A DNA stretch of 64,000 nt from Candidatus Saccharimonadales bacterium (GCA_050730875.1 JBOHNX010000001.1:489972-553971); one strand, 5' to 3'; positions 3,534-5,947 are shown, counted from the stretch's first letter. Program-made: numbers and translations. Notes: generated from the sequence alone by a model not told the origin.

Positions 3534-3610
3534 GGGCGCTTAGCTCAGTTGGCTAGAGCATCTCGTTTACACCGAGAGGGTCGGGGGTTCGAGTCCCTCA
3601 GCGCCCACCA
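3534..3610 (+). tRNA. tRNA-Val (anticodon TAC), CCA encoded
   Basis: GGGCGCT TA GCTC AGTTGGCTA GAGC A TCTCG TTTACAC CGAGA GGGTC GGGGG TTCGAGT CCCTC AGCGCCC A CCA (77 nt). Confidence 0.9.
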
Positions 3611-3646
3611 AGAAAAATGACCGATTATAGCATCGGTCATTTTTCT
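3611..3646. terminator. bidirectional terminator hairpin after tRNA-Val
   Basis: AGAAAAATGACCGAT-TATAGC-ATCGGTCATTTTTCT. Confidence 0.6.
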
Positions 3647-3658
3647 TGTTTTGAGACT

Positions 3659-3771
3659 GGGATTCGAACCCGAGAGGGCGTAAACTGCCAGTGGCAGTTT
3701 ACGGAGTCATTGCTTGGCCGAACGGAAGCTTTAGCTGGAGTGAGCAAAATATGGACGAGTCCCTCAGCGCC
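3659..3771 (+). repeat. tRNA-flanking structured repeat, copy D (T-loop type, cognate tRNA-Val)
   Basis: The order is: GGGATTCGAACCC (near reverse complement of the tRNA-Val T-arm); hairpin CGTAAACTGCC-AGT-GGCAGTTTACG; CTTGGCCGAAC...GAGTGAGC; CGAGTCCCTCAGCGCC. The last segment copies tRNA-Val from the T-loop into the acceptor 3' strand. Confidence 0.75.
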
Positions 3772-3787
3772 GCGACCATAACAATGT

Positions 3788-3826
3788 CGAGTCCCTCTCG
3801 GGCGAGATGAGTCCCTCAGCGCCCAC
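3788..3826 (+). repeat. two further partial direct copies of the tRNA-Val 3' end (att-like)
   Basis: CGAGTCCCTC (3788-3797) and GAGTCCCTCAGCGCCCAC (3809-3826). The second overlaps the stop codon of the RluA-like gene. Confidence 0.7.
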
Positions 3827-4619
3827 TAAGAACAGCATCAGCCGCAGCCAGCAACTCATCCGGCGAACGGGATGCCAGACGCCTGATGACCGGCTCCCAG
3901 AAGTCAGCACTGGGCTCGGCTTCAACCTCCACCCACCGAGGGTGGGCGTCTGCTGTCTCGAAAGCGATCCGCAATGAGTGCAGATAGGTCCGCGGTGCTG
4001 GTGGGTCAGCCTTCTTGCGGAACAATGGGTCACCGACAATGGCGTGCCCAACCCACGCGAGATGGACACGAATCTGGTGCCGGCGGCCGGTCACGGGCAT
4101 GGCAAGGACCACGACATTCTGGTTGTCATCCCAAAGATTCACGTAGTCGGTACGCGACGGATAGTTCTTACGCTGCAAGAGGTTGGCGGCTTTGACATAC
4201 CAGTTGCCAGTCGTCGCGTCGTGCTGGATGTGCTGCCGCTCTGCCGCAACTCGTATCCTGCCGCTGCTGGCGGTCAGGAGTGGTAGCTCAATGGTGCCTT
4301 TCTCCGGAAGGTGGCCGGGGCGGCATATTGCGAGGTAGGCTTTGTCTACGGTTCGTTTGGCGAACTGGCGAGTGAGCACACCCTGCGCTTTCTGGGTCTT
4401 GGCGAGCACCACCGCGCCTGAGGTTACCTTGTCGATTCGGTTTACCCACCATAGGCGTTCACCCGCATCGGCTGCGATAGTGATCAGGTCGGTGTCGTGA
4501 TGTTCGCCCATGACGGACAGCCCAGGCGGCTTATTGACCACGAGAGCGGAGTCGTCCTCCCACAGGACGATCTGTTTTCGCAGCTCACTCCAGTCCGGCA
4601 CTATTGTTTGACCTCGCAT
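3816..4619 (-). CDS. RluA-family pseudouridine synthase-like protein
   Basis: 267 aa. Contains VVNKPPGLSV, NRIDKVTSG (the catalytic-Asp motif, with N replacing the usual H) and GRRHQIRVHLAWVGHAIVGDPLF. It is visibly more GC-rich than flanking genes. Confidence 0.75.
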   Translation of the reverse strand: MRGQTIVPDWSELRKQIVLWEDDSALVVNKPPGLSVMGEHHDTDLITIAADAGERLWWVNRIDKVTSGAVVLAKTQKAQGVLTRQFAKRTVDKAYLAICRPGHLPEKGTIELPLLTASSGRIRVAAERQHIQHDATTGNWYVKAANLLQRKNYPSRTDYVNLWDDNQNVVVLAMPVTGRRHQIRVHLAWVGHAIVGDPLFRKKADPPAPRTYLHSLRIAFETADAHPRWVEVEAEPSADFWEPVIRRLASRSPDELLAAADAVLSGR

Positions 4620-4759
4620 ATCATTAACTCATTATCTTCATGAATCAGTTTACCATTGTCCGGTCGAGCAACGTTTAACACTTACTGCTTCATCGCTTTC
4701 TCGTAGGAACTAAAAACCTTCTCTCTCCAACGTGCTACTATGGAAATAGAGGAGTTTTC

Positions 4760-5161
4760 ATGGACCAAGAAACATTCTCTGGCGTTTGGAGTTGCCGCTA
4801 TTGGTACCCCAGTAACGACCATAATGGCGAAGATATTAGCGAATACGACGTCATGGCTCATCAGGTAGGCCACAGGCTAACTATGACCAGCCTGCCGACC
4901 AAAGATGGCTCCTACATTACCCTTAGACTTTCTATTGAAGGCAATTTGGCCACCGGTGCGTGGCAAGAATGCACTGCGCCTGACGGCTCTTTCGGTGGCA
5001 TGATTTATTCTGGTGCGATGCAACTCATTATTGACGATTCCAAAAAACGGATGGACGGCAAATGGGTGGGCATTGGCCGCGAAAAGATTGGCGAAAACGA
5101 ATACGAACCACGCATTTACACCGGTAAGTGGGAGCTCGTTTTCAAAGAAACTCAAGCTTAA
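4760..5161 (+). CDS. hypothetical protein
   Basis: 133-aa ORF with normal-looking composition. No motif recognised. Confidence 0.5.
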   Translation: MDQETFSGVWSCRYWYPSNDHNGEDISEYDVMAHQVGHRLTMTSLPTKDGSYITLRLSIEGNLATGAWQECTAPDGSFGGMIYSGAMQLIIDDSKKRMDGKWVGIGREKIGENEYEPRIYTGKWELVFKETQA

Positions 5162-5166
5162 GAGTA

Positions 5167-5194
5167 TTGATTATTTGTAAATTTATGGTATTAT
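5167..5194 (+). promoter_or_regulatory. AT-rich sigma70-like promoter with extended -10 upstream of the WhiB-like gene
   Basis: TTGATT - 16 nt - TGgTATTAT. AGGAGG Shine-Dalgarno at 5222-5227. Confidence 0.45.
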
Positions 5195-5232
5195 ATTAGC
5201 GTCAATCTGCCCGAATTTCCTAGGAGGATATG

Positions 5233-5472
5233 ATGGATTGGCGACACAGGGCCGCCTGCCGCGACGAGGACCCGGAGCTGTTCTTCCCGATCGGCACATC
5301 CGGCCCGGCACGTCTACAGACCGAACAGGCCAAGGCCGTATGCCGGCGATGTTCGGTGACCGGCGACTGCCTACGGTGGGCGCTCGATACCGGCCAGGAC
5401 GCCGGCGTGTGGGGTGGCATGACCGAGGACGAACGCCGCGCGCTGAAAAGGCGCGGCGGTCTACGCGTGTAA
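5233..5472 (+). CDS. whiB: WhiB-family (Wbl) Fe-S transcription factor
   Basis: MDWRHRAAC...(C-x27-C-x2-C-x5-C), GVWGG turn, and a basic C-terminal tail RRALKRRGG. About 68 percent G+C by hand count. The ATG at 5233 is preferred over 5230 because of Shine-Dalgarno spacing. Confidence 0.85.
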   Translation: MDWRHRAACRDEDPELFFPIGTSGPARLQTEQAKAVCRRCSVTGDCLRWALDTGQDAGVWGGMTEDERRALKRRGGLRV

Positions 5473-5543
5473 TGCCAGCCCGGCACAACAGGGGAGTCTT
5501 TAGTGCCACGCTAAAGGCTCCCCCTACCTACTACGAAAGATTG

Positions 5544-5577
5544 AAGCCCCTGGCGCAACAAGCGCACAGGGGCTTTT
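5544..5577 (+). terminator. rho-independent terminator after the WhiB-like gene
   Basis: AAGCCCCTG-loop-CAGGGGCTT followed by TT. A second long hairpin (GGGGAGTCTTTAG/CTAAAGGCTCCCC) lies just upstream. Confidence 0.55.
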
Positions 5578-5614
5578 GAAACAGCGGTACACCGCCAACG
5601 TCACCTAAGGCGAC

Positions 5615-5839
5615 TCATGGATACCTAATAACAATGTGATCTCCGGCGTGGATAAATTGGAACCCACGCGCCCTTACACGGTTTGCAACTTCATTTATCT
5701 GCTCAAGGGTCGTACTCTCGGGGAGGTCAATTTCGACTTGGGTCATTGCACCGCAACGCAGATCATCTCCCCATTTGATGAGCGCCGTTGTTACTCCATC
5801 GAGCAGCAAGCCTCCGGGTTGCATGTGGTCGCCAGCCAC
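5615..5839 (-). CDS. hypothetical small protein (start uncertain)
   Basis: 74-aa ORF with no recognisable motif. Coding status is uncertain. Confidence 0.3.
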   Translation of the reverse strand: MAGDHMQPGGLLLDGVTTALIKWGDDLRCGAMTQVEIDLPESTTLEQINEVANRVRARGFQFIHAGDHIVIRYP

Positions 5840-5901
5840 CAGTCCTCCTTACTTGTCGGATGTCGCCCTAGGTCACTTTCATTATGACATACTCGTTCTA
5901 C

Positions 5902-5930
5902 TTGATTTTTATCTGTTAAGCAGGTATCCT
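5902..5930 (+). promoter_or_regulatory. sigma70-like promoter upstream of repeat copy B
   Basis: TTGATT - 17 nt - TATCCT followed by AGGC. The same TATCCTAGGC string precedes the genuine tRNA-Leu(CAG) at 11488-11497. Confidence 0.45.
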
Positions 5931-5947
5931 AGGCACTGTCCTTTCAT

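Follow-up and report, generated by a model that had tools for sequence, protein, structure and literature searches.

We describe a 64,000-nucleotide stretch of Candidatus Saccharimonadales bacterium (GCA_050730875.1 JBOHNX010000001.1:489972-553971), called the window below, with positions counted from its first letter. Within it an intact tRNA-Val(TAC) gene is followed by three direct copies of its own 3′ end and then by a short block of genes, the islet, two of which resemble genes of Actinomycetota. We hold with moderate confidence that two things stand here side by side: a miniature, non-autonomous element that targets tRNA genes (tDNAs), with an enzymology that we infer, and a patchwork islet derived in part from hosts. 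Saccharibacteria are ultra-small obligate epibionts with few recognized mobile elements, and no description of such an element was found in full-text literature searches.

The tRNA-Val gene lies at 3534-3610 (+; ARAGORN; Rfam, 69 bits). It is followed at 3609-3648 (+) by a terminator-type hairpin with 17-bp arms, whose stem pairs the end of the tRNA CCA and which is homologous to the terminator after tRNA-Val in the element-free metagenome locus L110. The element copy at this gene, copy C, begins directly after that terminator. It consists of a left arm, which is an inverted copy of the T-loop region (3659-3671; GGGTTCGAATCCC on the minus strand), a two-hairpin core (3678-3748, +; 70.5 bits with covariance model R1, with covariation and folding in addition) and a right arm that copies the tRNA 3′ end. 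In order, the core contains hairpin P1 with apex TGCCAGTGGCA, a linker, and P2 (TTGCTTGG / GAGTGAGCAA) around a variable hairpin. As the preliminary description had recorded, the segment from the T-loop to the acceptor strand is present three times on the plus strand, and the matches are exact: copy 1 at 3756-3771 (tRNA-Val nt 57-72, 16 of 16, with the element tail ..AAAATATGGA ahead of it), copy 2 at 3788-3797 (CGAGTCCCTC, nt 57-66, 10 of 10) and copy 3 at 3809-3826 (nt 58-75, 18 of 18). The last runs on to 3832 at 23 of 24 matches, taking in the trailer AAGAA. An 18-mer search allowing up to 3 mismatches gave 3 sites (0.05 expected), a number reached in 0 of 100 shuffles.

The unit 3774-3797 is a 75%-identical tandem duplicate of the tail and arm at 3742-3765, and both units resemble the tail and arm of copy D (described below); right-arm copy 3 likewise has ..GATG in front. 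Distances between the right-arm copies are 32 and 20 nt, and these gaps hold no remnant of separate elements. The sequence CCCTCTCGGG after right-arm copy 2 is complementary to 3669-3678. No fourth tRNA-Val fragment is present at the far end of the islet; the sole match is a 10-nt chance one inside whiB. Because copies 1 and 2 are tandem duplicates of the tail and arm of one element, they do not represent successive insertions, and the three tRNA-Val 3′ ends are best read as the right arm of one non-coding element of ~170-220 bp, locally triplicated.

Model R1, built from 24 aligned cores (alignment A1), gave six strong matches in the window, copies A-F, and no other strong match. All six lie within 1-12 kb, each is tied to a tRNA, and all five tRNAs of the window have copies. 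A repeat finder returned the hairpin motif ..CTGCCAGTGGCAG.. five times, always beside a tRNA, and an 11-mer of this motif had 12 matches where 1.4 were expected. Copies C, D, E and F have the downstream form, in which a tRNA ending in CCA is followed by a terminator-type hairpin that pairs the CCA, the left arm (inverted T-loop region), a core of ~75 nt and the right arm. After the left arm come a G-N-N-A-G-G motif, P1, a linker (GAGTTTTCC or GGAATCC) and P2 (TTGCTTGG ... CGAGCAA) around GCCGA and the variable hairpin; then come a tail of 4-11 nt, as measured from the model match to the arm, and the direct copy of the tRNA from the T-loop on.

Copy D (6238-6356, +; core 6252-6332, 55.7 bits) lies downstream of tRNA-Leu(GAG), with its left arm at 6238-6246 and a degenerate right arm at 6344-6356. 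The right arm ends where the stop codon of a convergent FAD-oxidase gene (6356-7993) begins, which parallels the position of the RluA stop codon inside right-arm copy 3 at tRNA-Val. Copy E (11640-11752, +; core 11657-11727, 46.7 bits) follows tRNA-Leu(CAG) at 11506-11591 and has arms at 11640-11651 and 11738-11752. Copy F (518-646, -; core 549-629, 51.7 bits) is tied to tRNA-Gly at 1387-1462; its left arm (635-646) is an inverted tRNA-Gly T-loop and its right arm (518-543) is the tRNA-Gly 3′ end through CCA. Between tRNA-Gly and copy F lies open reading frame ORF151 (789-1244, -), which has no Pfam domain and a GC content (GC) of 0.395, the lowest of 14 genes measured. This is the only case here of a gene inside the stretch that separates a tDNA from its fragment, and it shows that cargo can sit there; the other intervals, of 148-218 bp, hold no ORF. 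Ahead of the copy F left arm, at ~652-700, a remnant ..CTTGCACCA and a terminator were also noted. At 19215-19320 (+) a weak R1 match (18.6 bits) has a P1-like hairpin CGTATAGTGCTGGGCAGCACTATACG, then GTTTTC, with a ..GCAGCGAGCAAAG motif another ~60 nt along; it may be a degenerate seventh copy, away from any tRNA.

Copies A and B have an upstream (5′-side) form with a core of 78 nt, arranged as tRNA nt 1-19, core, tRNA nt 21-38, a 34-nt spacer and the intact tRNA. Copy A (1574-1721, +; core 1592-1663, 74.8 bits) has tRNA-Phe nt 1-19 at 1574-1592 and nt 21-38 at 1670-1687, and its spacer, with TATAAT, leads to the intact tRNA-Phe at 1722-1797. Copy B (5948-6095, +; core 5966-6037, 69.9 bits) has nt 1-19 at 5948-5966, nt 21-38 at 6044-6061, the same spacer length and then intact tRNA-Leu(GAG) at 6096-6184. 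A -10-like hexamer (TATAAT in A) lies in the spacer of this form, and the place of a would-be -35 is taken by the copied anticodon loop. The pseudo 5′ piece of copy B sits behind the ancestral tRNA-Leu promoter region (5872-5944, +), which is 71% identical to 11435-11497 upstream of tRNA-Leu(CAG) and which in the element-free locus L092 is immediately upstream of the tRNA. A pseudo-tRNA-Leu half had been described as the end of the islet; it does start there, at 5948, but it is itself a copy of the element in its 5′-side form and more than just a boundary. Copies A and B have identical repeat spacing, exactly 148 nt, and their 84-nt inserts are 89% identical despite the different tRNAs.

Metagenomes were scanned with a pattern derived from the core, which returned 75 loci, ~45 of them true members; the remaining matches were chance ones in high-GC coding DNA or came from one unrelated conserved gene. 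Among these loci, R1 gave 46 matches of at least 38 bits in 41 metagenome contigs. True members come from soil, rhizosphere and similar samples, on contigs of GC 0.43-0.57, and their targets are tRNA-Ala, Arg, Asn, Gln, Gly, Leu (CAA, CAG, GAG, TAG), Lys, Met, Phe, Pro, Ser, Tyr and Val as well as tmRNA. The downstream layout is common to 23 copies, including the four in the window. In these, the tRNA ends 59-78 nt before the core, except for 117 nt at one locus and 757 nt at copy F; for 17 of the 23, the start of the right arm corresponds to a point 20-22 nt short of the tRNA 3′ end (C56 ± 1), and the arm often runs through CCA; and the left arm has its inner end at G52/G53 in 17 copies and in the variable loop (GGTC) in 5. 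Right arms scored mostly 10-27 against the local tRNA, versus an average of 5-9 against the tRNAs of other loci. In L104, L129 and L140 the target is a tmRNA gene, identified with Rfam; 67-75 nt separate its end from the core, and the 3′ end of the tmRNA is what the right arm repeats.

Three loci (L091, L118, L122) have the core opposite in orientation to the tRNA. In L091 the resident tRNA-Met is split: the 5′ half runs up to a break in the anticodon loop, the 3′ part resumes in the variable loop, and between the halves lie an intact tRNA-Met and the core; the acceptor strands of the split halves co-vary (GCCAGGG/CCCTGGT, versus GCCGGCG/CGCCGGT in the intact gene). L151 contains a whole pseudo-tRNA-Leu, whose T-loop holds the core, upstream of the intact gene; another copy comes after that gene. 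All junctions that can be placed fall in loops of the folded tRNA (D-loop 19/21, anticodon, variable, and T-loop 53-56).

Some variation within members was also seen. At 602-693 of L100, the variable hairpin of the core is a second TGCCAGTGGCA hairpin, forming a nested module, and at 97-400 of L154 there are several extra GGCTTTAGCC..GAGCGAGC sub-modules downstream of the core; hairpin modules can apparently duplicate on their own. L106 has, at ~6120-6266, a structured leader of ~140 nt between the tRNA-Leu promoter box (TTCTCTGTTAAAGCGCTATGAT) and tRNA-Leu(GAG). This leader is unrelated to the core and has no R1 match, and the 5′ side of tRNA-Leu(GAG) seems to be a recurrent insertion point.

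Pairing in the core was assessed on alignment A1. In P1 (11 pairs), 90% of cells pair, and both sides change in 7 of the 11 pairs; in the comparison with slid controls the figures are 87% for P1 and 24-52% for the controls. The covariation score of P1 was 0.229, compared with 0.091 ± 0.013 when shuffled, and was reached by 0 of 500 shuffles. Two adjacent P1 positions are either Watson-Crick (CGTAAAC/GTTTACG) or tandem G.A/A.G (CGAAAAC/GTTTGAG), with ~12 sequences of each kind. P2 is mostly invariant and thus uninformative on compensatory change; 22 of 24 sequences have a U.G pair in it, which is C.A on the opposite strand. In line with this conserved pair, folding energies summed over 34 cores favored the plus strand (-1016 kcal/mol, versus -898 for the reverse complement). 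When copies C, D and F were folded with their arms, left and right arms were predicted to close a helix around P1 and P2/P3 (z-scores of -1.3, -4.1 and -4.3, respectively). The structure may act as RNA or as folded single-stranded DNA.

No core matched Rfam 15: a scan of the window at the gathering threshold gave only the 5 tRNAs, and an E-value scan of 1300-12000 on either strand gave nothing on the cores. A hidden, split or permuted tRNA in the core was rejected, as ARAGORN and Rfam find none on either strand, the 5′ strand of the T-stem is missing and candidate anticodon loops have no U33. A sigma-54 promoter in TGGCA..TTGC was rejected because the spacing is wrong. The covarying core is a candidate for Rfam-type curation as a new RNA or DNA structural family.

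At tRNA-Val, the element is present in the window and in L103 and absent in metagenome contigs L110 and L125, which carry it elsewhere, at tRNA-Leu and tRNA-Ala. These are the empty sites that the preliminary description had proposed to look for. The best relatives of Ddl, encoded beside tRNA-Val, are in Saccharibacteria metagenome-assembled genomes (MAGs) at only 55-58% identity and in a different gene order, and searches for exact protein matches gave only short Logan contigs of a single run. No copy was found in seven other Saccharibacteria MAG loci, which contain tRNA-Val, Leu-GAG, Phe and Gly, or in three loci of Saccharibacteria-like genomes. Near-identical cores occur beside different tRNAs within apparently single genomes, namely in copies A and B and in L091 (Met), L122 (Pro) and L137 (tRNA fragment); the L091 and L122 cores differ by a compensatory G-C to A-T change in P1. 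Presence and absence at tRNA-Val, together with near-identical 148-nt units at two tRNAs, point to a mobile element of attP size without an integrase. Independent decay of larger islands would hardly give A and B the same 148-nt geometry, so that the spreading entity is probably the small unit itself.

We propose that site-specific recombination in tRNA loops moves the unit in the form of a small circle. The crossover would fall mostly in the T-loop; in the second form it would fall in the D-loop, with a 5′ fragment and a promoter that the unit brings along. Catalysis would come in trans from a recombinase encoded elsewhere, with the conserved hairpin core as its recognition module, and at tRNA-Val the tail and arm would have been triplicated locally.

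The arrangement was compared with known systems. In tDNA islands, a regenerated tDNA and a displaced fragment enclose the island, and attP is ~250 bp; integrase crossovers are at the anticodon loop, the T-loop or the T/acceptor junction, with the D-loop unlisted; fragments are 3′ in 3760 islands and 5′ in 159; tmRNA is the most enriched target; and tandem arrays at one tDNA are known (PMC4383910). Like these islands of tyrosine integrases (the Islander signature; PMC4383910, citing Williams 2002), the element combines an intact tDNA with a displaced cognate fragment in direct orientation, which is a 3′ fragment downstream (Val, Gly, Leu-GAG, Leu-CAG) or a 5′ fragment upstream (Phe, Leu-GAG). 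It also breaks in the T-loop, has tmRNA among its targets and spans an interval near the size of attP. Unlike them, it has no integrase or other gene inside, its interval is 148-218 bp and not at least 2 kb, copies at over a dozen different tDNAs have one structured core in common, the T-loop has an additional, inverted copy, and the 5′ form breaks in the D-loop. With the exception of ORF151 at copy F, foreign genes do not lie between tDNA and fragment.

cis-Mobilizable elements (CIMEs), such as those related to ICESt1/3 of Streptococcus thermophilus, are att-flanked derivatives of integrative and conjugative elements (ICEs) that have no recombination genes, are kilobases long and carry cargo. 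The element resembles CIMEs in its attL/attR-like repeats, its lack of an integrase and its presumed dependence on the recombinase of another element; it differs in being ~0.2 kb, multi-copy and directed to many targets, and in having no known parent, whereas CIMEs derive from known ICEs. With miniature inverted-repeat transposable elements (MITEs), repetitive extragenic palindromes and bacterial interspersed mosaic elements (REP/BIME) and IS200/IS605 palindrome-associated transposable elements (PATEs), it shares small size, multiple copies, hairpins, an intergenic place, no coding capacity, arms that are inverted repeats and presumed mobilization in trans. Unlike all of these, it is tied exclusively to tRNA/tmRNA genes. 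Its arms are copied from the local tRNA and so differ between copies, and no short target-site duplication was seen, in contrast to MITEs; there is no fixed target oligonucleotide as with IS200/IS605 PATEs or with REP and their associated tyrosine transposases (RAYT), the left flank being ..ACC, ..TGG or ..GCC and the right tail 4-11 nt. Our best reading of the family is a miniature tDNA-targeting integrative element with a structured core, which departs from tDNA islands, CIMEs and MITEs in a defining feature of each.

The islet occupies the space between copies C and B, from the end of right-arm copy 3 to the ancestral tRNA-Leu(GAG) promoter, and is outside the tDNA-fragment intervals of both copies. 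Delivery of the islet by tRNA-Val insertions had been proposed; since it lies to the right of all three fragments, with none at its far end to bracket it, it is not an island of the tRNA-Val att-like sites. Its description as accessory DNA of mixed origin stands, with RluA and WhiB of actinobacterial type and ORF133 of Saccharibacterial type, and the genes named earlier are there (RluA, PF00849; WhiB, PF02467, GC 0.68; a doubtful 74-amino acid ORF), except that ORF133 is no orphan, as it has 23 homologs.

Composition was examined in 300-nt windows across the 64 kb, as the preliminary description had advised. GC averages 0.502 ± 0.042 and is heterogeneous: RluA has GC 0.60 and GC at third codon positions (GC3) of 0.68, with a high-GC block at ~3830-4600; WhiB has GC 0.68 and GC3 0.78 and contains the maximum of the window, 0.663. 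ORF133 (0.49) and ORF74 (0.52) are both close to background, and abrupt steps in GC lie at 4580-4620, 5180-5220 and 5460-5500. For both RluA and ORF133, a protein of 100% identity is found in an NCBI MAG labeled Candidatus Saccharimonadales. An independent Logan assembly of SRR27067773 matches the window exactly at 1632-3600 and 3571-5280, taking in tRNA-Val and the repeats, then RluA and ORF133, and lastly the AT-rich promoter and initial 50 nt of whiB. It stops at 5280, within whiB, so that independent confirmation of whiB extends only to that position. The exact match across the junctions from tRNA-Val to the start of whiB makes a chimeric origin of those junctions unlikely.

The RluA coding sequence (CDS; 3816-4619, -) encodes a predicted RluA-family pseudouridine synthase, as judged by its Pfam match (PF00849, 1e-25, 91.1 bits) and by the conserved R-I-D-K-V-T-S-G block. 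R61, D63, K64, V65, T66, S67 and G68 are invariant in an alignment of 8 RluA sequences, and the catalytic Asp motif is kept. Within the family it belongs to an actinobacterial subfamily. The reading frame ends ...AVLSGR* with the codons AGT GGG CGC TGA, which are the reverse complement of right-arm copy 3 and confirm the reported overlap of the last tRNA copy with the stop codon. The protein body is intact to ..AADAVL; the variable C-terminal tail of the homologs has been cut and replaced by SGR*, three codons from the tRNA copy, and six extra N-terminal residues come from AT-rich DNA. The pentamer AAGAA belongs to the trailer of the tRNA (CCAAGAA) and is equally the complement of the codons for V-L, which gives the junction the form of a microhomology join. 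After the protein of the MAG itself, the best matches are 73-81% identical, the named ones being from Frankia sp. Cr1 and Pseudonocardiaceae; Pseudonocardia, Granulicoccus and Streptomyces come further down the list. Contigs of the closest homologs have GC 0.62-0.66, nucleotide identity to one of them is 80.6% and, as for whiB, limited to the CDS, and among the top 120 matches only the MAG's own protein has a Saccharimonadales label.

ORF133 (4760-5161, +) encodes a hypothetical protein with no Pfam match. Its 23 homologs are 54-71% identical, and those whose contexts were read lie in a Saccharibacteria-type order, tilS-ftsH-murJ-lepA-gmk-hrcA-grpE-dnaK, one of them on a 1.09-Mb contig; these contexts suggest a lineage-typical accessory gene relocated here. 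ORF133 is followed at 5167-5194 (+) by a predicted AT-rich, sigma-70-like promoter with an extended -10 (TTGATT-16-TGnTATTAT), and an AGGAGG ribosome-binding site lies between it and whiB.

The whiB CDS (5230-5472, +) encodes a WhiB1/WblE-type protein (PF02467, 3e-27, 95.3 bits, cut-off 23.6) with the N-terminal motif MDWRH..C..DPELFFP and the C-terminal motif GVWGG..ERRALKRR. In domain, terminal motifs and identity (85-90%) it is like WhiB1 (Rv3219)/WblE of Actinomycetota, the matching proteins being from Salinispora, Micromonospora, Frankia and many metagenomic Actinomycetota; unlike actinobacterial WhiB1, it lies in a Saccharimonadales chromosome behind an AT-rich promoter of native type. 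The closest homologs are on contigs of GC 0.69-0.71 in the context sodN-dagK-whiB-cysH-(sulfite reductase)-pdtaS-anti-sigma, which we take to be the WhiB1 neighborhood (the Rv3219-Rv3220c region), and this synteny supports an assignment of the islet protein as a WhiB1 ortholog. Nucleotide identity to actinobacterial whiB1 is 79-82% and is confined to 5233-5468, within the CDS. Full-text literature searches found no description of WhiB in Saccharibacteria. The doubtful ORF74 (5615-5839, -) has no Pfam match and, among 1.84 billion representative proteins, had only itself as homolog.

The search for donor lineages that had been suggested thus pointed to Frankia/Pseudonocardiaceae for RluA and to Salinispora, Micromonospora and Frankia for WhiB. 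Nearest relatives in the donor phylum, deviant composition and absence from relatives of the recipient, the marks of horizontal transfer, are all found for the RluA and WhiB genes, which appear to have come from Actinomycetota. The islet is, from its composition and relatives, a patchwork of two CDS-sized actinobacterial fragments, a native accessory gene and other DNA. The CDS fragments would have been joined to native AT-rich promoters and to the Saccharibacterial accessory gene by illegitimate, microhomology-type recombination, and the donor DNA was probably released from lysed hosts and then taken up by the cell. As DNA uptake occurs in Saccharibacteria and their hosts are Actinomycetota, illegitimate integration of host fragments would be the most economical route. 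The islet is a concrete case of gene flow from host to parasite, with actinobacterial genes behind native promoters, and it raises the question of what role an actinobacterial redox- and nitric oxide-sensing regulator of WhiB1 type has in, or for, a parasite of Actinobacteria.

Several observations weigh against a mobile element beside a host-derived islet. FAD-oxidase orthologs only 52-60% identical flank tRNA-Leu and the element in L092, L106, L125 and L151, as they do here, which means that the association is old and maintained or has been repeatedly re-established. Across those lineages the core is 70-80% identical and has RNA-like features (U.G pairs, and tandem G.A alternating with Watson-Crick pairs), so that it may function as RNA. 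As the preliminary description had noted, no recombinase is present: integrase and transposase domains (PF00589 included) are absent from the 37 window ORFs scanned with Pfam. When 270 ORFs located within 3.5 kb of cores were clustered all-versus-all in search of an autonomous parent element, the families obtained were syntenic housekeeping ones only, and none of recombinase size recurred. Pattern scans did not find the element on IMG/VR viral contigs; the 5 loci returned there were rejected as evidence of a viral origin, being chance matches in coding DNA with no nearby tRNA and model scores of at most 17 bits. An inverted left arm would not be expected from simple Campbell integration, the D-loop break of the 5′ form is outside the known integrase sublocations, and no excision product or circular junction was observed. 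For the islet, the donors are only ~80% identical, so that its timing and route of transfer are those that we infer.

Part of this evidence bears on a functional structured RNA, in which the core would be a trailer or leader module co-transcribed with the tRNA or tmRNA and the antisense left and sense right arms would compete for the tRNA 3′ half, controlling maturation, stability or termination. That P1 covaries, U.G pairs are kept and the plus strand folds better agrees with it, as do the regular distance from the tRNA end, the complementarity of the left arm to the T-arm of the tRNA itself and the presence of the element beside tRNA-Leu in lineages with such divergent FAD oxidases. We consider it unlikely all the same. 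In the common form a terminator stands between tRNA and core; the element is missing from tRNA-Val of L110 and L125 and from all tRNAs of the seven Saccharibacteria MAG loci; both orientations occur, as does a 5′-side place inside pseudo-tRNA pieces; right arms are often decayed (copies D and E); and near-identical copies lie at unrelated tRNAs. The conserved hairpins, the invariant apical sequence and the lack of coding capacity would also suit a relic of a hairpin-dependent single-strand transposon, like an IS200/IS605 PATE, REP/RAYT or an integron attC, with a Y1/HUH or IntI-like enzyme recognizing folded P1/P2 and the loops of tRNA genes, where all junctions lie. This is distinctly unlikely, because the left end has no conserved tetra- or pentanucleotide, the right tail varies over 4-11 nt, the chemistry of IS200/605 or RAYT gives no long direct repeats derived from the target, and no Y1 transposase domain is present in the window ORFs scanned.

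The preliminary description had favored repeated site-specific insertions at tRNA-Val with loss of the recombinase. Spelled out, this would be three successive integrations that each left an attR-like fragment, with the islet as the integrated DNA remaining after loss of the integrase. The fragments are indeed att-like in the formal sense, being direct, downstream of the gene and starting in the T-loop as in attR, tandem arrays at one tDNA are known (PMC4383910), and the islet is compositionally foreign. It is nevertheless improbable that three integrations took place: copies 1 and 2 belong to tandem repeats of 32 nt in which the tail of the element is included, the gaps between the copies are empty of other elements, the islet is outside the tDNA-fragment intervals with no fragment at its far end, and the same single-arm architecture recurs at ~23 other tRNAs. 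Least credible, to the point of being nearly dismissed, is an assembly or binning artefact in which actinobacterial reads were chimerically joined to a Saccharimonadales contig. The Logan break at 5280 is what would be expected if whiB k-mers were shared with co-occurring Actinobacteria, and the protein collection searched has no exact WhiB record; yet the Logan contig runs without mismatch from tRNA-Val into whiB, through the first 50 nt of that gene; each foreign block has the size of a CDS, is in frame and stands behind promoter and ribosome-binding sequences of native type; the RluA frame ends within a tRNA copy; and the source contig is 556 kb.

By analogy with the bridge RNAs of IS110 or the omega RNAs of transposons, the core and its two tRNA-derived arms might, as a long shot, be transcribed to form a programmable guide. 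The scaffold (P1, P2/P3), with antisense and sense copies of the T-arm, would then direct a trans-encoded recombinase or nuclease to tRNA/tmRNA genes. This would explain why one core serves more than a dozen targets, why all junctions are in tRNA loops and why the covariation is of RNA type. A softer version takes the cores as portable homology anchors, by which naturally competent Saccharibacteria would swap host-derived cargo between tRNA loci. If the miniature tDNA element is real, a compact, abundant element that both marks and reshapes tRNA/tmRNA loci would offer a way into the study of DNA acquisition by reduced genomes. Such an element would likewise give rise to tRNA-fragment false positives in annotation, and it may serve as a natural integration module for genetic tools in Patescibacteria.

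Other genes of the window were noted in passing. Two small MazG-like nucleotide pyrophosphohydrolase paralogs with weak Pfam matches, at 1833-2153 (-) and 8062-8469 (-), each lie within ~2 kb of a tRNA-linked element. An exonuclease I gene (SbcB-type, RNase_T + Exonuc_X-T_C; 30278-32086, -) has a 300-nt stretch of GC 0.63 around 31800, one of only seven 300-nt windows with GC of at least 0.60 in the 64 kb. At 9086-11308 (-), a 740-amino acid, secreted-looking protein with a C-terminal GDSL lipase/acylhydrolase domain is encoded at GC 0.55 overall and locally up to 0.60 (neighbors, 0.44-0.49), and its gene may be a further acquired one. A 382-amino acid protein encoded at 54789-55937 (-) has DUF348 repeats, a G5 domain and a transglycosylase-like domain, which is the architecture of the actinobacterial resuscitation-promoting factor RpfB; it may be another host-type gene of this Saccharimonadales genome, perhaps acting on the host cell wall.

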